Positions 11,285 through 63,679 of a stretch of DNA of 64,000 nucleotides are shown here, one piece after another. The DNA lies in the NCBI GenBank assembly GCA_035758565.1, contig DASTXL010000001.1:203242-267241 (forward strand). The letters run 5' to 3'. The notes under the pieces are model-generated. The model was not told the DNA's origin. It ran no database searches and worked only from the letters and a program-made list of their open reading frames with translations. Each line of letters opens with the position of its first letter. Positions within the stretch are counted from its first letter, which is position 1. This stretch comes from Candidatus Saccharimonadales bacterium. Its GTDB lineage: Bacteria; Patescibacteriota; Saccharimonadia; Saccharimonadales; UBA10212. The position numbers and the translations under genes were made by a program.

Positions 11285-12817
11285 ATGAACTGGGGCATAA
11301 TTTTAAAGTCTCTTGGCCACAAAGAGATGCGAAACCGCATTTTGGCGGTGCTTGGCATGCTGCTTGTTTTTCGAATCTTAGCTCACGTTCCAGTTCCTCT
11401 AGCCGACCCGCACACTTTAAAGCAGGTCCTCAATAACCTCTTTACGCAGACAAATTCCAACCAACTTCTCGGGTTTCTTAATGTTCTTTCTGGCGGCGCG
11501 CTAGCTAACTTCTCGATCATGCTAGTGGGCTTGGGCCCTTACATTAACGCCAGCATTATTATGCAGCTGCTCACCAAAGCTATTCCAAAATTGGAAGCTA
11601 TGAACAAAGAGGGAGAGTACGGCCGCAAAAAGATTAACCAGTACACCCGCATGCTTACATTTCCGCTGGCCATCGTTCAGTCAATCGGCACCATTTATTT
11701 AATCCGCCAAGAGGCCTCAAGCATTGGTGGTTTGGGCGATATCACGGCCAATACTTCATTTTTGCAGTGGGCTTTAATGATCGCCACACTCACCGGCGGC
11801 TCTATGGTATTGATGTGGCTGGGTGAACTTATTACCGAACGTTCTATCGGCAACGGTATTAGCTTGCTGATTACCGTGGGCATTGTTAGTCGCCTGCCGA
11901 CCCTATTTACCGAGCTTTGGAGTGGAGCCTACTGGGTTAAGGGCACTAACGCGGCCAATGATAAATTTATGCTGTTCCATCGCAATTTTTCTAAGCACGG
12001 CATGATTATTTTTTGGATAATCATGCTGGCCATTATTGCCATCACGTGGGCGGTGGTGAAGCTTAATGAAGCCAGCCGTAAACTTACGGTTAATTATGCT
12101 AAACGCGTGCAAGGCAATCGTACTTATGGTGGCGTAACCACTACTTTGCCGGTCAAACTTATTACGGCCGGTGTTATTCCAATTATCTTTGCCGTGGCCT
12201 TTCTTTCCGTGCCCAATTTCTTGGGCCAGTTGCTAACGCACGGGCAGGGAGTGAATCTGGCTAATCCAGTAGGCACTTGGCAGCATTTGGGCGTTAATTT
12301 GTCTACCTGGTTTCAGAGTCCTAGCCAGCTAACCTTTGCTACCGAGGGTTGGAAGGCCTGGATTTACCCGGTGACCTACTTCTTATTAGTGTTTATCTTT
12401 ACTTACTTCTATACCAGCGTAACGTTTAACTCTAAAGAGATTGCCGAGAACTTGCAAAAACAAGGCGGCTTTATCGCCGATGTCCGTTCTGGCAAGCAAA
12501 CCGAAAGGTATTTGTCTAAGGTAGTTAATCGCCTAACTTTGTTTGGTGCGCTAGCACTTGGTTTTTTGGCGATTTTGCCGATTGTCGCCCAAGTTAAGCT
12601 GAATGAGAACATTGCCATTGGCGGCACTAGCATTTTGATCTTGGTTTCCGTTTCGCTTGAAACCTTACGCCAAGTAGAATCACGCGCTTTGATGATTACT
12701 TACGATCAGTATGAGCAACCCGACTATTTTTACGAAGCTCCAGGAGTAGAGGGCGCTCCATCTAGCCGCACGGCTATTCTCTCGCGCCTGCCGCTGGTTG
12801 GCCGCCGCAAAAAATAG
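11285..12817 (+). CDS. secY: Preprotein translocase subunit SecY (long form, 510 aa)
   Basis: Multi-TM protein with LNVLSGGALANFSI, GISLLI and GGTSILI motifs. It sits after rplO. A TATAAT box lies 8 nt upstream of the ATG. Confidence 0.9.
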   Translation: MNWGIILKSLGHKEMRNRILAVLGMLLVFRILAHVPVPLADPHTLKQVLNNLFTQTNSNQLLGFLNVLSGGALANFSIMLVGLGPYINASIIMQLLTKAIPKLEAMNKEGEYGRKKINQYTRMLTFPLAIVQSIGTIYLIRQEASSIGGLGDITANTSFLQWALMIATLTGGSMVLMWLGELITERSIGNGISLLITVGIVSRLPTLFTELWSGAYWVKGTNAANDKFMLFHRNFSKHGMIIFWIIMLAIIAITWAVVKLNEASRKLTVNYAKRVQGNRTYGGVTTTLPVKLITAGVIPIIFAVAFLSVPNFLGQLLTHGQGVNLANPVGTWQHLGVNLSTWFQSPSQLTFATEGWKAWIYPVTYFLLVFIFTYFYTSVTFNSKEIAENLQKQGGFIADVRSGKQTERYLSKVVNRLTLFGALALGFLAILPIVAQVKLNENIAIGGTSILILVSVSLETLRQVESRALMITYDQYEQPDYFYEAPGVEGAPSSRTAILSRLPLVGRRKK

Positions 12818-25413: not shown

Positions 25414-25865
25414 AAACACAACCTTACTACAGACAAATAAACCCAAATTATAACAAAACCAAAAACAAACAGGCTAAATAGAGTTAACGCAAAAGTTGCT
25501 TCAATCCTCACGCGCCTAATTTCAATTTTTGAAGCTAATTTATGAATCGAAAGCAAAAGCGTCGACGCTAATAAGACAATGGTTGCTAAACTAGAGATAA
25601 TCAGATAGGGATAGTACTTGGACGCTCCACAGGTGTCAGAAGATGGGTCGAGGTAGTTGGATAATAAAGTGAGTGCTGTAGCTACCAGCAGGCTGATAAA
25701 GGACGATCGTAGCCTGTGTCTGGCTACTGTCGACCAGGCCGTTTCTACTATCATTGCATAAGTATAGTACGGTTTAGATTTTTTACCGCAATATCTGGCA
25801 TTTTTACCTCTGTTTTGATAAACTAACTTCGAGCTTAACAAATAAGCTCTTTTTCTTGCCGACAT
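25410..25865 (-). CDS. Hypothetical multi-TM membrane protein (start uncertain)
   Basis: Hydrophobic ORF. The annotated ATG lies 8 nt inside tRNA-Thr, so the internal M at 25754 is an alternative start. Confidence 0.35.
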   Translation of the reverse strand: MSARKRAYLLSSKLVYQNRGKNARYCGKKSKPYYTYAMIVETAWSTVARHRLRSSFISLLVATALTLLSNYLDPSSDTCGASKYYPYLIISSLATIVLLASTLLLSIHKLASKIEIRRVRIEATFALTLFSLFVFGFVIIWVYLSVVRLCF

Positions 25866-25933
25866 AGCTCAGTGGCTAGAGCGGCTGTTTTGTAAACAGC
25901 GGGTCGTGGGTTCGAATCCCTCTGTCGGCTCCA
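25858..25933 (+). tRNA. tRNA-Thr (anticodon UGU)
   Basis: Manual cloverleaf: acceptor GCCGACA/TGTCGGC, D arm GCTC...GAGC, anticodon stem GCTGT/ACAGC with loop TTTGTAA, T-loop TTCGAAT, encoded CCA. Confidence 0.85.
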
Positions 25934-26085
25934 TGATTTTGAGCCCGCCTTTTGGCGGTAGCAAAATTATCTAGTCGATACGGATGAGAACCCGGGTGAG
26001 TGAGCGAAAGCGAACAAGGGTTCGTACAGGAATGAGCGTGCAGGAATTTATTCCGAACAAGCGAATTCCGTGCAAGCGTAAGCGC

Positions 26086-26103
26086 ATCCCTCTGTCGGCT
26101 CCA
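26086..26103 (+). repeat. Direct repeat of the tRNA-Thr(UGU) 3' end (18/18 nt)
   Basis: ATCCCTCTGTCGGCTCCA is identical to 25916-25933, and lies 152 nt after the tRNA end. Confidence 0.9.
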
Positions 26104-26197
26104 TTTTTTGAACGTGTTTGCGAGGGCGTTCAAGGTGAGGAAAGTTCAGGTGGGTGTTACATTGCTAACCGCACTATACTCTGCTATAGTGCGGTCT

Positions 26198-26602
26198 ATG
26201 CAGACTAAACAAAAGGGAGATCTAGCCCTAGCATCCGCAATTCAATATTTTGTCAGCCAGGATTACGAGGTCTGTCTGCCGATAGGAGACAAGCGTGACT
26301 ATGACTTAATAATTGAGAAGGGTGGCCAGCTGTCTAGGGTTCAGGTAAAGTACGCTGGCTTATACCTGCGCGGCAATCAATGTAAGGTGGGACTACGCAT
26401 AACTGGCGGAAATCAATCATTTCATTATGCAAAGAAATACATGGACGATGCCTTTGACGAGCTTTTTGTTTATACTGCTAAGGGTGAAATGTTCCTTTTG
26501 CCATGGAGTAAAGTAACCGCAAGAAATGAAATCAGTATCGAACATAAAAAATATGAAGTTTTTCGACTGCGCGGAGGTAGTGAAGCGGTCAAACACGTCT
26601 GA
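26198..26602 (+). CDS. PD-(D/E)XK endonuclease, I-Ssp6803I-like (PDDEXK_5-type) homing-endonuclease candidate
   Basis: Start at MQTKQKGDLALASAIQYF. The DYDLIIEKGGQLSRVQVKY core gives a D...(Q)VK motif. The last 32 nt, including the stop, overlap tRNA-Tyr. Confidence 0.55.
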   Translation: MQTKQKGDLALASAIQYFVSQDYEVCLPIGDKRDYDLIIEKGGQLSRVQVKYAGLYLRGNQCKVGLRITGGNQSFHYAKKYMDDAFDELFVYTAKGEMFLLPWSKVTARNEISIEHKKYEVFRLRGGSEAVKHV

Positions 26603-26656
26603 CTGTAAATCAGATGGCATTCGCCTTCGGGGGTTCGAATCCCTCCCTCCGCACCA
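26571..26656 (+). tRNA. tRNA-Tyr (anticodon GUA), class II with long variable arm
   Basis: Acceptor GCGGAGG/CCTCCGC, anticodon stem TCTGA/TCAGA with loop CTGTAAA, 14-nt variable arm, T-loop TTCGAAT, encoded CCA. Confidence 0.85.
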
Positions 26657-26832
26657 TGAAATATGGCTAGTCATTTGACCGGCCATATTTCATCTTGTAG
26701 AGTGGGCTGAACCACCGGCGACAGCTTTAGCTGGCGCAAAAGGGGTTCGGCGTAGCAAAGGCACGCGCAAAAGCTCAGCTTTGAGCATGTCTGAGGCGGA
26801 GAAGCGACGAGCCGCAAGGCGAGGGAAGCGCT

Positions 26833-26850
26833 ATCCCTCCCCCTGCACCA
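26833..26850 (+). repeat. Imperfect direct repeat of the tRNA-Tyr 3' end (16/18 nt)
   Basis: ATCCCTCCCCCTGCACCA here compared with ATCCCTCCCTCCGCACCA at 26639-26656, 176 nt after the tRNA end. Confidence 0.75.
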
Positions 26851-28329: not shown

Positions 28330-28932
28330 ATGTCAAAAGATAGGACTACCATAAACAAAGTCACCCTAGAGACCTTGTATGTAAAAAAGGGGATGTCCAT
28401 GAGCACCATAGCCAAAGAGTTAGGGTGCTCGGTTAACAGGGTGGTCTATTGGATGGATCAACATGGTATTAAAAGGCGCAGCATTAGTGACGCCATTTAC
28501 TTGCACAAAAATCCCAATGGAGACCCGTTCAAAATAATAACGCCCACCACACTAGAAGAAGCCAAGCTTTTAGGCTTAGGAATCGGCCTCTACTGGGGTG
28601 AGGGCACGAAGGCAAATAAGCACTCTGTGCGTTTAGGAAACTCAAATCCACATTTAATCATCGCTTTTATAAAATTTCTTACTATAATATGCGGTGTCAA
28701 TAAAGACCATCTGAAATTTGGGTTGCAACTTTTTTCAGACGTCAGTAAGAATGAAGCCTTGAATTTCTGGACAGAAGCTCTTAGCGTAAAACCCTCGCAA
28801 TTTTATAAGATAACAGTTACTATATCTGGTGCGATTGGAACATACCGGATAAAAAATAAATACGGAGTGTTAACAATCTATTACCACAACAAGAAGCTAC
28901 GAGACGCTTTAGTCTCGATGTTGCCGACATAG
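28330..28932 (+). CDS. HTH + single-motif LAGLIDADG-like homing-endonuclease candidate
   Basis: N-terminal HTH (MSTIAKELGCSVNRVVYWM). LLGLGIGLYWGEGTK resembles a LAGLIDADG motif. The last 10 nt, including the stop, overlap tRNA-Thr(GGU). Confidence 0.45.
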   Translation: MSKDRTTINKVTLETLYVKKGMSMSTIAKELGCSVNRVVYWMDQHGIKRRSISDAIYLHKNPNGDPFKIITPTTLEEAKLLGLGIGLYWGEGTKANKHSVRLGNSNPHLIIAFIKFLTIICGVNKDHLKFGLQLFSDVSKNEALNFWTEALSVKPSQFYKITVTISGAIGTYRIKNKYGVLTIYYHNKKLRDALVSMLPT

Positions 28933-28997
28933 CTCAGGGGTAGAGCACGATCATGGTAAGATCGGGGTCATGGGTTCAAATCCCATTGTCGGCTCCA
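28923..28997 (+). tRNA. tRNA-Thr (anticodon GGU)
   Basis: Acceptor GCCGACA/TGTCGGC, anticodon stem CGATC/GATCG with loop ATGGTAA, T arm ATGGG-TTCAAAT-CCCAT, encoded CCA. Confidence 0.85.
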
Positions 28998-29403: not shown

Positions 29404-29476
29404 AACTAGCGGTTAATTTAAAACTGTTCTAAAATACTGGGGTCCCCGCAAATTTTAATTTGTGGGGTAATTCAAA

Positions 29477-29551
29477 GGGGAGTAGCTCAGTTGGTAGAGC
29501 ACCGGTCTCCAAAACCGGGTGTCGCAGGTTCAAGTCCTGTCTCCCCTGCCA
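29477..29551 (+). tRNA. tRNA-Trp (anticodon CCA)
   Basis: Acceptor GGGGAGT/CTCCCCT, anticodon stem CCGGT/ACCGG with loop CTCCAAA, T-loop TTCAAGT, encoded CCA. Confidence 0.85.
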
Positions 29552-29702
29552 AAATAAAGTAGTCTGTCGTAAAGACAGGCTGTTTTATTTTGATATGAGT
29601 TAGGACTTGAACCGATAGGCATGAATGGCCAGTAGGCTATTCATGTTTTCTTTGCTTGGCCGGCTCGGCCAATGCTTGCATTTTGGCCAGCCGCAGAATA
29701 AC

Positions 29703-29724
29703 TCAAGTCCTGTCTCCCCTGCCA
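29703..29724 (+). repeat. Direct repeat of the tRNA-Trp 3' end (22/22 nt)
   Basis: TCAAGTCCTGTCTCCCCTGCCA is identical to 29530-29551. An inverted copy of the T-arm (AGGACTTGAACC) lies at 29602-29613. Confidence 0.9.
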
Positions 29725-29758
29725 AGACGACCGCCTAATTATAGACGGTCGTCTTTTT
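29725..29758 (+). terminator. Rho-independent terminator after the duplicated tRNA-Trp end
   Basis: AGACGACCG...CGGTCGTCT stem followed by TTTT. Confidence 0.6.
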
Positions 29759-48025: not shown

Positions 48026-48265
48026 TCTGTTACCGTGTCTTAATGGGAGATATGCCCGCTTAGACTGTTGCCTAACAGAGTTAATTTTGCTAATATATCC
48101 AGGAACTTGAGCCAAAGACAGCGACGGGGAAACCTTAATAAAGTCGCCTAGGAACAAGAAAGTCTTATAGATTTTTACGTTAGTCTTTTGGCCATAATAG
48201 GCCATTTTTTATAGCTCAAGACACCTTAACAAATTGGTCGATATTGTTAAACAAGGAGAAAACTC
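48026..48265 (+). promoter_or_regulatory. Long untranslated leader upstream of rplJ (candidate L10 autoregulatory leader)
   Basis: 240 nt without a credible ORF, ending in an AAGGAGAAAA SD. L10-leader regulation is known in many bacteria, but no structure was verified here. Confidence 0.25.
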
Positions 48266-52414: not shown

Positions 52415-53779
52415 ATGCCAAAGCCTCCCGTCGAAACCGCTCCGCAAAGCCTCGATATTGAGGCCAGTTTACTGGGCAGCATTTTAATTGACAGCGAGAG
52501 CTTTATTAAGATCGCCGATATGGTTCAAGCCGACGATTTTTATGATGAGCGGCACAAGGCGATATTTGCCGCCATGCGCACGCTGCACGATCGCCGCAGC
52601 CCGATAGATATCTTAACTTTGAGCGAACAACTCAAATCACTTGGCCAGCTGGACGGCGTGGGCGGCGCCAGCTATTTAACCGAGCTAACTAACACCGTGC
52701 CCACGGCCACACACCTTGAGCAGTATGCTGAAATCGTAGCCGATAAGGCTATTCGCCGCCGCTTGATTAGCGCTTCGCGAGATATTGCCAACATTGGCTC
52801 AGACGAAAGCAAAACCTTGCAGGAGCTGATCGAAGAGGCCGAGACCAGGCTGTTTGAAGTCAGCCAGCGGCACGTGCGCCAAGACATTACCAGCCTGGAA
52901 TCAATCCTAGAGGCTAGTTTTGATAGAATTGACGATTTGCACAATAACAAGGGCGCCATCCGCGGTATTCCAACCGGCCTGCGCGATTTAGATAAACTAC
53001 TTGCCGGTTTGCAGCGCTCGGATCTTATAGTTATTGCCGCCCGCCCGAGCATGGGCAAGACGGCGCTGATGCTAAATATCGCCCTTAACGTGGCCACCAA
53101 GGCCAAGCAAGGCTCGGTGTTAATATTCAGCCTAGAAATGGGTAAAGAGCAGCTTGTAGACCGCTTATTGGCCGCTGAAGCCGGCGTTGACGCCTGGAAG
53201 CTCCGGACTGGCGAAGGCTTAGACACCAAGGATTTTGAACGGCTTAGCGCCGGCATGGGCGAGCTGGCCGAAGCGCCGATTTTTATTGACGACACTTCTG
53301 GTATTACGGTCAGCGATATGCGCACCAAAGCTCGCCGCTTGCACCACCAGCATCCACTGGCATTAATCGTGGTTGACTATTTGCAGCTGATGAGCGGCGG
53401 TTCACGCTTTGCGGCCACCGCTAATCGTGTGCAGGAAATATCTGAAATTAGCCGTAGTTTAAAGATTTTGGCCCGCGAATTAAATGTGCCGGTCGTAGCC
53501 CTAAGCCAGTTGAGCCGCTCCGTAGAAAACCGCACGCCGCAAATTCCGCAATTGGCCGACCTGCGCGAATCAGGATCAATCGAGCAAGATGCCGATATCG
53601 TGGCTTTTCTTTACCGCGAAGATTACTATAACCCCGATAGCGACAAGCAAAACATCACCGAAATACTGGTTAAAAAACATCGTAACGGCCCGACTAAAAA
53701 CATTGACCTCTACTTCGACAGAGTCAAGCAGCGGTTCCGCGACTTAGACGTCGCGCACGACCAACCGTTCGAGTCCTAG
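52415..53779 (+). CDS. dnaB: Replicative DNA helicase DnaB
   Basis: PQSLDIEASLLGSIL, ARPSMGKTA (Walker A), VVDYLQLM and LSQLSR motifs. Confidence 0.9.
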   Translation: MPKPPVETAPQSLDIEASLLGSILIDSESFIKIADMVQADDFYDERHKAIFAAMRTLHDRRSPIDILTLSEQLKSLGQLDGVGGASYLTELTNTVPTATHLEQYAEIVADKAIRRRLISASRDIANIGSDESKTLQELIEEAETRLFEVSQRHVRQDITSLESILEASFDRIDDLHNNKGAIRGIPTGLRDLDKLLAGLQRSDLIVIAARPSMGKTALMLNIALNVATKAKQGSVLIFSLEMGKEQLVDRLLAAEAGVDAWKLRTGEGLDTKDFERLSAGMGELAEAPIFIDDTSGITVSDMRTKARRLHHQHPLALIVVDYLQLMSGGSRFAATANRVQEISEISRSLKILARELNVPVVALSQLSRSVENRTPQIPQLADLRESGSIEQDADIVAFLYREDYYNPDSDKQNITEILVKKHRNGPTKNIDLYFDRVKQRFRDLDVAHDQPFES

Positions 53780-63372: not shown

Positions 63373-63447
63373 TGGGACGTCGCCAAGTGGTAAGGCACCG
63401 GGTTTTGGTCCCGGTATTCGGGGGTTCGAATCCCTCCGTCCCAGCCA
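63373..63447 (+). tRNA. tRNA-Gln (anticodon UUG)
   Basis: Acceptor TGGGACG/CGTCCCA, 3-bp D stem, anticodon stem CCGGG/CCCGG with loop TTTTGGT, T-loop TTCGAAT, encoded CCA. Confidence 0.85.
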
Positions 63448-63600
63448 AGGCCGATAAATGGATCTTTAGGATTCGTTTGTCGGCCTTGATTTTTTAGATG
63501 GGATTCGAACGGGTTTGCCGGGGGCAAACCCCGAACCTAGCCCGGCGACCATGGGAGCCGGGTCGCCTTGGCAAAAGTAATTTTTCTTTTGCCGGCGAGG

Positions 63601-63621
63601 CGAATCCCTCCGTCCCAGCCA
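63601..63621 (+). repeat. Direct repeat of the tRNA-Gln 3' end (21/21 nt)
   Basis: CGAATCCCTCCGTCCCAGCCA is identical to 63427-63447. An inverted T-arm-like GGGATTCGAAC lies at 63500-63510. Confidence 0.9.
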
Positions 63622-63630
63622 TACAAAAAA

Positions 63631-63655
63631 CCGGACCATACTGGTCCGGTTTTTT
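63631..63655. terminator. Bidirectional terminator after the duplicated tRNA-Gln end
   Basis: CCGGACCA...TGGTCCGG stem flanked by an A-run and a T-run. Confidence 0.6.
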
Positions 63656-63679
63656 GTATGTTGATGTATAATTCACTCA

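Follow-up and report, generated by a model that had tools for sequence, protein, structure and literature searches.

Results

Four tRNA Genes Are Followed by Copies of Their Own 3′ Ends

The stretch of DNA analyzed here in its entirety (the window) comprises 64,000 nucleotides of a Candidatus Saccharimonadales bacterium (GenBank assembly GCA_035758565.1, contig DASTXL010000001.1, forward-strand positions 203,242 to 267,241) and carries five tRNA genes, each identified by both ARAGORN and Rfam. Four of these genes are followed by an insert that ends in a second copy of the tRNA's own 3′ end; these inserts, and their likeness to the tRNA-linked repeats (TLRs) of Escherichia coli, are the subject of this study. 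The genes concerned, all on the + strand, encode tRNA-Thr(UGU) (25858–25933), tRNA-Tyr(GUA) (26571–26656), tRNA-Trp(CCA) (29476–29551), and tRNA-Gln(UUG) (63373–63447). In a direct search the last 18 nt of tRNA-Thr(UGU) (25916–25933) recurred at 26086–26103 with 18/18 identity and the last 18 nt of tRNA-Tyr (26639–26656) at 26833–26850 with 16/18, as had been reported in the original prediction made for this DNA. The same architecture, which that prediction had also ascribed to tRNA-Trp and tRNA-Gln (four of the five tRNAs in all), was borne out by copies of the last 21 nt of the former (21/21; 29704–29724) and the last 20 nt of the latter (20/20; 63602–63621). Every copy starts in the T-loop (positions 56–59) and ends with CCA, the spacing from the end of the tRNA to the copy is 147–176 nt, and the resulting modules span ~170–190 nt with the copy included. 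All four start with the base that follows CCA and share the orientation of the tRNA, on the + strand. A downstream 3′-end copy was also sought for tRNA-Thr(GGU) (28923–28997), and none was found.

Chance and misassembly were both excluded as sources of these repeats, by score controls, an independent assembly, and relatives that carry them. By our own calculation, the chance of meeting a 16-mer with two or fewer mismatches within 500 nt is ~1e-4 per tRNA, and among 154 tRNA genes from related loci and the window, alignment scores of 18–22 occurred exclusively downstream of the tRNA, with upstream controls scoring 16 or less. An independent public Logan assembly (L001; comparison loci and contigs are given L numbers throughout) contains an identical Tyr module, and another metagenome (L129) an ortholog of it; misassembly, which the original prediction had named as a possible refutation, is therefore ruled out.

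The Units Share a Layout Built around an Antisense T-Arm Box

The layout of the units is an optional first terminator hairpin (T1), an antisense T-arm box, a hairpin core of ~70–100 nt, and the T-loop-to-CCA copy. Within the window a strong, long terminator-like hairpin opens each insert, all four inserts fold to a compact domain, and the box is present in every one, so that the initial stem-loops and inverted T-arm-like sequences noted in the original prediction were both recovered. The box consists of a 5- to 10-nt arm complementary to the 3′ strand of the T-stem, followed by GAUGAGAAC, AUUCGAAC, or ACUUGAAC.

The Thr-linked unit, which belongs to an RtT-like class named after an E. coli RNA discussed below, occupies 170 nt (25934–26103; all features of the units lie on the + strand), with the T1 hairpin at 25934–25969 and the copy at its end. 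Its box, AGTCGATACGGATGAGAACCC (25973–25993), includes the T-arm-like part GGATGAGAACCC (25982–25993) and is followed by GAGCGAAAGCGA (26002–26013) and by GGGTTCG (26018–26024), the pairing partner of GAACCC. The Tyr-linked unit (194 nt; 26657–26850) is a member of a family that we call family A and contains a T1 hairpin (26657–26692), the box GTAGAGTGGGCTGAACCACC (26697–26716) with T-arm-like part GGGCTGAACC (26704–26713), the motif GGGGTTCGG (26742–26750), and a covarying inner hairpin (26760–26796). In the Trp-linked unit (173 nt; 29552–29724) the T1 hairpin (29552–29590) precedes the antisense T-arm GAGTTAGGACTTGAACC (29597–29613; T-arm-like part GGACTTGAACC, 29603–29613), and directly after the copy a second terminator-like hairpin (T2) with a T-run can be read from the sequence at 29725–29758 (+ strand), although a consensus terminator scan did not list it. 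The Gln-linked unit (174 nt; 63448–63621) has its T1 hairpin at 63448–63486, with a T-run to 63495, the antisense T-arm GATGGGATTCGAACGGG at 63497–63513 (T-arm-like part GGGATTCGAAC, 63500–63510), and a hairpin GGGTTTGCC-GGGG-GCAAACCC at 63511–63531; a T2 terminator hairpin follows the copy at 63623–63657.

A promoter-like sequence, TTGACC-17 nt-TAGAGT, is present at 26675–26703 (+ strand) within the Tyr T1 hairpin, just upstream of the antisense box, and both of its hexamers are identical in the L129 ortholog. Judged by its match to a promoter, it could supply the unit with a transcription start of its own.

The box pattern GGAYKMGAAC matches the window six times against 0.8 expected, namely in three T-arms (the Thr(UGU), Tyr, and Gln genes), in two boxes (Thr and Gln), and once elsewhere (53767–53776). 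The T-loop of tRNA-Trp, UUCAAGU, is not palindromic, and the Trp unit carries its exact reverse complement, ACUUGAA; the left box is therefore unambiguously a true reverse complement of the T-arm. Arms match the local T-stem in four types: GAGGG/CCCTC, TAGG/CCTAC (L031), AGGAC/GTCCTG (Trp), and GAAGG/CCTTC (E. coli). This complementarity is mainly Watson–Crick over 5–10 bp and fades past the T-stem.

Two subclasses can be distinguished. In the RtT-like subclass, a downstream GGUUCG is the pairing partner of GAACC in the box, which makes the unit readable as an antisense T-arm opposite a sense T-arm whose loop is split by ~70 nt. The Gln and Trp units form the second, characterized by an exact antisense T-loop and a UGCC-GGNG-GCA hairpin, and their alignment is too poor for a covariance model. 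A tRNA-like minihelix with an acceptor stem was considered as a description of the units and rejected: a convincing 5′ partner exists in the Thr unit alone, the others leaving a tail of 6–9 nt.

A Structure-Aware Model Links the Thr/Tyr Class to E. coli RtT

TLRs were described in E. coli by Egan & Landy (1978) and Rudd (1999), as summarized in PMC8144298. The class was first seen behind tyrT, as a 178-bp repeat associated with RtT RNA, and also lies between the T1 and T2 terminators of rrn operons; E. coli K-12 has 22 units at ten loci, one to five per locus, defined by a final 18–19 bp that match the 3′ end of the preceding tRNA or rRNA gene exactly (PMC8144298). No function is known for TLRs except Hfq/CsrA binding by three rrn T1–T2 units, an early claim of a role for rtT in the stringent response having been retracted, and a processed, discrete RNA has been reported for rtT and RrA/B/F alone (PMC8144298).

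The 178-bp units downstream of E. coli K-12 tyrT-tyrV are annotated rttR/tpr. Each is composed, in order, of GGGGAAGGAUGAGAAGC, GGUUCGA, GAGCG(A/C)(A/C)AGCGAGAGA, a GUUGCC-NCAG-GCAAC hairpin, and the terminal AAUCCUUCCCCCACCACCA; the E. coli units also show GGGGAAGGAUGAGAAG paired with AUCCUUCCCC, along with GGUUCGA, GAGCGAAAGCGA, and a terminal 19-nt tRNA copy. RtT units of E. coli and of the candidate phyla radiation (CPR), to which the Saccharibacteria belong, have an order in common: T-stem-complementary arm, GAUGAGAA, GGUUCG, GCGA-rich hairpins, tRNA end. They are further alike in a closing helix formed by the arm 5′ of GGAUGAGAA with the copied AUCC..., in the pairing of GAACC with GGUUC, in a 3′ tail ending with CCA, and in the GCGA-rich segments, and the window Thr unit holds the identical 12-mer GAGCGAAAGCGA, which is shared at matching offsets together with 9- to 11-mers of the box. 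The Rfam RtT model (RF00391) matches four E. coli units, in which the closing helix joins GgGaaGG to CCuuCcC.

The covariance model designated R1 drew on 18 units from Saccharibacteria and metagenomes, the Thr and Tyr units of the window among them, and excluded E. coli sequences; its only structure was the nine base pairs of a proposed helix P1, in which the arm would pair with the copied T-stem strand. R1 recovers all four E. coli RtT units at full length (32.8, 25.8, 25.0, and 24.9 bits; E 9e-8 to 1e-5), and its matches are co-extensive with those of Rfam RtT, while E. coli tRNA-Tyr genes score ~8 bits. Saccharibacteria tRNA-Tyr genes score 20–25 bits because they have the 3′ end in common with the units of the model, and the contrast within E. 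coli is therefore the fair test. In the opposite direction, Rfam RtT aligns over its full length to the Tyr-linked unit of L119, at 14.7 bits (threshold 45; E 2.1 across 4227 families). Comparisons of CPR and E. coli units by sequence-only HMM and BLAST were marginal (E ~0.02–0.1); significance was reached by the structure-aware model alone.

The Gln/Trp subclass resembles the T1–T2 spacer of E. coli rrnB more than it resembles RtT. That spacer (L132, 300–430) contains GGATTTGAAC, then GTTGC-GAAG-CAAC-GGCCCGGAGGG, near the hairpin region of RtT, and its final 18 nt are a copy of the 5S rRNA end; GGATTTGAAC and GTTGC-GAAG-CAAC are the points of likeness. By their architecture alone, the Gln and Trp units are filed here as putative TLRs.

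The units agree with the TLRs of E. coli in lying immediately 3′ of a stable-RNA gene and in its orientation, in ending with an 18- to 21-nt copy of that gene's 3′ end, in their size (~100–190 nt), in occurring singly or several in tandem, often framed by two successive terminators like T1 and T2 of rrnB, and in that the tRNA-linked members have no known function. They differ in that the host is a Saccharibacterium rather than an enterobacterium and the units are known here from sequence alone, in that four tRNA species are occupied within 38 kb, and in a first terminator hairpin far stronger than that of the tyrT units. With respect to RtT, sequence identity is too low for the Rfam model and the interiors vary by family.

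Units Are Polymorphic among Relatives and Fall into Families

Relatives were represented by 80 loci from a NusG-anchored scan of species-representative genomes, nearly all labeled Saccharibacteria or Saccharimonadales, and the counts that follow rest on the tRNA genes found by ARAGORN in these loci. A copy of the tRNA-Tyr 3′ end passed a strict test in 4 of 27 cases (L005, L027, L031, and L069), at a distance of 147–175 nt; interrupted copies were found in L024 and L018 and a truncated one in L056. Among the tRNA-Trp genes 1 of 60 has a copy (L073), and among the tRNA-Thr(GGU) genes 0 of 39; inspection by eye also turned up a Thr(UGU)-linked unit in L005, where the locus ends within the tRNA. 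The interrupted Tyr copies are split by a 24- to 27-nt insertion, CCCC[TTTAGCCTGAGCCACGTCGAAGAC]CAGCACCA (L024 4400–4447; L018 4494–4540), that is conserved between both species.

Most relatives are empty. The gap between tRNA-Thr and tRNA-Tyr is 1–10 nt in L002, L003, L006, L024, and L051, and tRNA-Tyr directly abuts a DHH-family gene in L002, L014, L017, L026, and L051. The exact empty site of the Thr insert is present in L019, L031, L036, and L065, where a promoter-like spacer directly follows the tRNA; in the window this spacer, TTGCGAGG...GGTGGGTGTTACA, comes after the second Thr copy rather than after the tRNA. Since the same spacer follows the tRNA in these relatives and the copy in the window, the Thr unit constitutes a clean 170-bp presence/absence difference, and the search for empty sites proposed in the original prediction thus identified discrete insertions.

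Units are also amplified. L031 has two tandem units behind tRNA-Tyr, hence three copies of the 3′ end, and tandem units occur as well in L114–L116, L123, and L126, those of the window being single. A scan of metagenome contigs for a tRNA-Tyr end with a second copy 147–177 nt later yielded 21 more loci (G+C 0.34–0.51), several of them with a second tandem unit. About two-thirds of the collected units contain a box of the form (R)GGAU-GAGAA-(C/U) or GGAUU(C/U)GAA(C/U), 47–82 nt into the unit; the versions of the box in family A are more diverged. Viral contigs scanned with the family-A core pattern gave chance matches alone, and with the Tyr double-copy pattern mainly phage tRNA arrays.

The four window inserts show no mutual alignment, nhmmer included, and therefore are not copies of one element within the genome; the common ancestry for which the original prediction had proposed an alignment test found no support in it. 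Their relatives lie in other genomes. The Tyr unit is related to units in L005 and L031, the Trp unit has a homolog behind tRNA-Trp in L073, and the Gln core is ~78% identical to the Tyr-linked units of L024 and L018 (nhmmer E 2e-10 and 8e-10).

A different conserved element of ~85 nt, TTCGACTCGGC...GAGCGNAGTCGAAGGACCA, is found within the first ~90 nt after tRNA-Trp in L005, L009, L018, L024, and L030, and also after the Tyr unit of L024. It is GCGA-rich, like the repeat units, and has no tRNA-end copy.

Conservation, Covariation, and Exchange of Cores

The metagenome contig L129 carries an ortholog of the window Tyr unit between the same flanks. Over 314 nt, tRNA-Tyr plus unit is 85.7% identical in the two, whereas the coding gene alongside reaches 74.6%. 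In the first hairpin, the substitutions between these two sequences yield G-U pairs on the + strand, and one loop-proximal pair changes from A-U to U-G. In family A (n = 6 units), 13 of 36 predicted pairs show changes on both sides and 91% of cells pair, a result reached in none of 500 shuffles; most of this signal resides in the inner hairpin (26760–26796). With so small a number of units, the compensatory changes are support for, rather than proof of, a conserved structure. A further compensatory change, between the distal copy of the window Tyr unit and its 5′ partner, was withdrawn, since in comparison with L129 the 5′ segment is unchanged while the copy differs.

The Thr-linked unit of L005, which has no first hairpin, shares a core of ~103 nt with a unit behind tRNA-Tyr in L119 at 89% identity (92/103); for the tRNA-Tyr genes of these organisms the figure is 79% (68/86). 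Each unit fits the local tRNA at both ends, the left arm reading GGAGG in L119 and GUUCG in L005, each before GAU, and the right copy reading AUCCCUCC... versus AUCCGAC.... It follows that cores move or are exchanged across tRNA species and across genomes, with arms that are matched in the end. Units are also gained, lost, and amplified at the direct repeats, as the clean empty sites and tandem arrays show. In units with two differing copies, such as that of L117 and the Tyr unit of the window, the distal copy corresponds to the tRNA-Tyr allele of another species and the tRNA is internally consistent. Such a variant distal copy fits either a fossil host allele, the tRNA and unit having been imported together by homologous recombination, or a copy brought with the unit.

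Discussion

Collectively, these comparisons lead us to regard the four inserts as probable TLRs of the RtT kind, with a processed trailer RNA as their likely product. If this is true, read-through transcription would yield an RNA in which helix P1 forms and in which a second helix, P2, joins GAACC to the downstream GGUUC. The copied tRNA end may then act as the same 3′-processing and stability signal as the genuine tRNA end, and, with that signal supplied, processing at the copied CCA could release a discrete small RNA of ~120–190 nt. This would be reminiscent of E. coli, where a discrete small RNA has been reported for rtT and RrB (PMC8144298).

Several observations weigh against this interpretation. 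Rfam RtT reaches its 45-bit gathering score on no unit examined, and an Rfam scan of the window, at the gathering score and at E <= 10, returned no family for the inserts and no RtT match; R1 itself gives the Gln unit 6.7 bits and misses the Trp unit. Transcription and processing in Saccharibacteria are proposed by analogy with E. coli and from structure. The complementarity of the arms beyond the T-stem is weak (permutation p = 0.05), and a strand-asymmetry test of G-U versus A-C gave no preference for P1 as an RNA helix over an inverted repeat in DNA. Moreover, RNA function alone does not explain new units in which both arms are matched to the new tRNA. As to the way the units spread, which we infer rather than observe, matched arms could reflect an insertion mechanism that rebuilds them, core exchange between resident units at conserved ends, or compensatory selection.

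An alternative is that the units are miniature integrative elements or attL/attR remnants, arising from an attP circle of ~170 bp by the action of a tyrosine integrase encoded elsewhere in the genome or in a phage. We consider this unlikely. The T-loop-to-CCA segment is the classic tRNA att segment, and the repeats span exactly this segment and flank the insertion directly; empty sites are precise, and units accumulate in tandem at the tRNA end, as accretion of integrative elements would allow. In addition, three IMG/VR contigs (L087, L091, and L109) combine an integrase gene, a tRNA 3′ fragment, and three 97-nt units that share the tRNA end. However, the inserts are gene-free and only ~150–175 bp long, and a domain search of ~40 of the 50 window open reading frames (ORFs) of at least 170 aa revealed neither an integrase, resolvase, or transposase nor a reverse transcriptase, in agreement with the absence of an integrase noted in the original prediction; nor did tblastn match the L087 integrase to anything in the window or in the 80 loci. 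Where the copies disagree (window Tyr, L117), it is the distal one that varies, the tRNA copy fitting its own 5′ strand, seemingly the opposite of what a crossover in the T-loop would leave. The Trp box, as a true reverse complement of the T-loop, is a misfit with direct overlap regions at the two junctions. In E. coli the class also occurs behind 5S rRNA genes, and cores are conserved and covarying. The proposal that the inserts are att-like scars or decayed integrative elements therefore fares poorly against an internal architecture shared with E. coli RtT/TLR units, a Tyr unit more conserved than coding DNA, compensatory changes, and variation in the distal copy rather than in the tRNA.

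In the L087 region mentioned above (12440–12790; also in L091 and L109), the end of the tyrosine-integrase gene is followed by the tRNA 3′ fragment and the three 97-nt units in tandem, each comprising a terminator hairpin, GGGGAGTCGAAG..., and the same 20-nt tRNA end. These may be another, shorter kind of TLR that was displaced by a prophage.

A second alternative, which we likewise view as doubtful, is a self-propagating mini-element guided by nucleic acid: the core would move, perhaps via an RNA or single-stranded intermediate, pairing of the arm would direct insertion, and the arms would be rebuilt from the target. The 92/103 match of cores behind Tyr in L119 and Thr in L005, set against 68/86 for the tRNA-Tyr genes, is what such an element would leave, as are a left arm (GGAGG vs. 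GTTCG) and right copy that match the local tRNA and the ~78% identity of the Gln core to the Tyr-linked units of L024 and L018. The copy, too, always ends at the mature 3′ end, and its 18–21 nt would correspond to the part of the tRNA 3′ of position 58. Yet the window ORFs scanned yielded neither a reverse transcriptase nor another candidate enzyme, the intermediate is hypothetical, and the swap of arms could also be explained by compensatory selection or by resident units trading cores at the conserved ends (GAUGAGAACC and CGAUAUCC). In its broadest form, this idea would make the units pan-bacterial, retargetable elements that home to the 3′ ends of stable RNAs, with arm and copy rebuilt from the target by a nucleic-acid-guided, possibly RNA-templated, protein-free mechanism; we judge that form to be improbable as well. 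The suggestion in the original prediction of a family of miniature tRNA-targeting elements came closest to the evidence, in that the inserts do form families, but it did not recognize the known TLR phenomenon of E. coli (PMC8144298).

The remaining suggestion, that the units are by-products of double-strand-break repair from neighboring homing-endonuclease-like genes, can be virtually dismissed: a PD-(D/E)XK gene (PF11645, E 5e-20) does lie directly after the Thr unit, but L019 has this endonuclease gene (77% amino-acid identity) between tRNA-Thr and tRNA-Tyr without a unit, and the other three modules (Tyr, Trp, and Gln), like almost all units elsewhere, lack a neighbor of this kind.

For nearly fifty years, since 1978, the TLRs in the tRNA and rRNA operons of E. 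coli have gone unexplained (PMC8144298). The literature searched contained no report of TLRs outside enterobacteria and none for the Saccharibacteria phylum. The occurrence of the TLR architecture and the GAUGAGAAC box in small Saccharibacteria genomes and in low-GC metagenomic lineages implies that the class is either ancient or highly mobile, and the comparative data (presence/absence, tandem arrays, covariation, and a core retargeted from Tyr to Thr) can be used to weigh a functional trailer RNA against a selfish element. In genome annotation, duplicated tRNA 3′ ends should not be taken by default for scars of prophages or islands. Guided insertion with arms rebuilt from the target would, if true, be an insertion mode new to description.

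Neighboring Genes and Other Features of the Window

Between tRNA-Thr(UGU) and tRNA-Tyr, a free-standing 133-aa ORF (26201–26602, + strand) matches the PF11645 PD-(D/E)XK endonuclease family (E 5e-20), which we take to be of the type encoded by some group I introns. Among the fetched loci its homolog occurs in L019 alone (77% amino-acid identity). The same interval contains a conserved spacer, TTGCGAG...GGTGTTACA(A/T)T (26118–26163), that is also present in L014, L019, L025–L027, L031, L036, L056, L062, L065, and L069 and, by its sequence, looks like a −35/extended −10 promoter for tRNA-Tyr.

A 200-aa ORF (28330–28932, + strand) has weak N-terminal helix-turn-helix matches and a LAGLIDADG-looking motif, LGLGIGLYWGEG, seen by eye. 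The ORF runs into tRNA-Thr(GGU), sharing the first 10 nt of that gene, and homologs at the same position are found in L031 (58% identity) and L030 (54%). Farther along, a ribosomal protein L10 leader (RF00557) lies at 48094–48218 (+ strand), scoring 44.1 bits against a threshold of 44.

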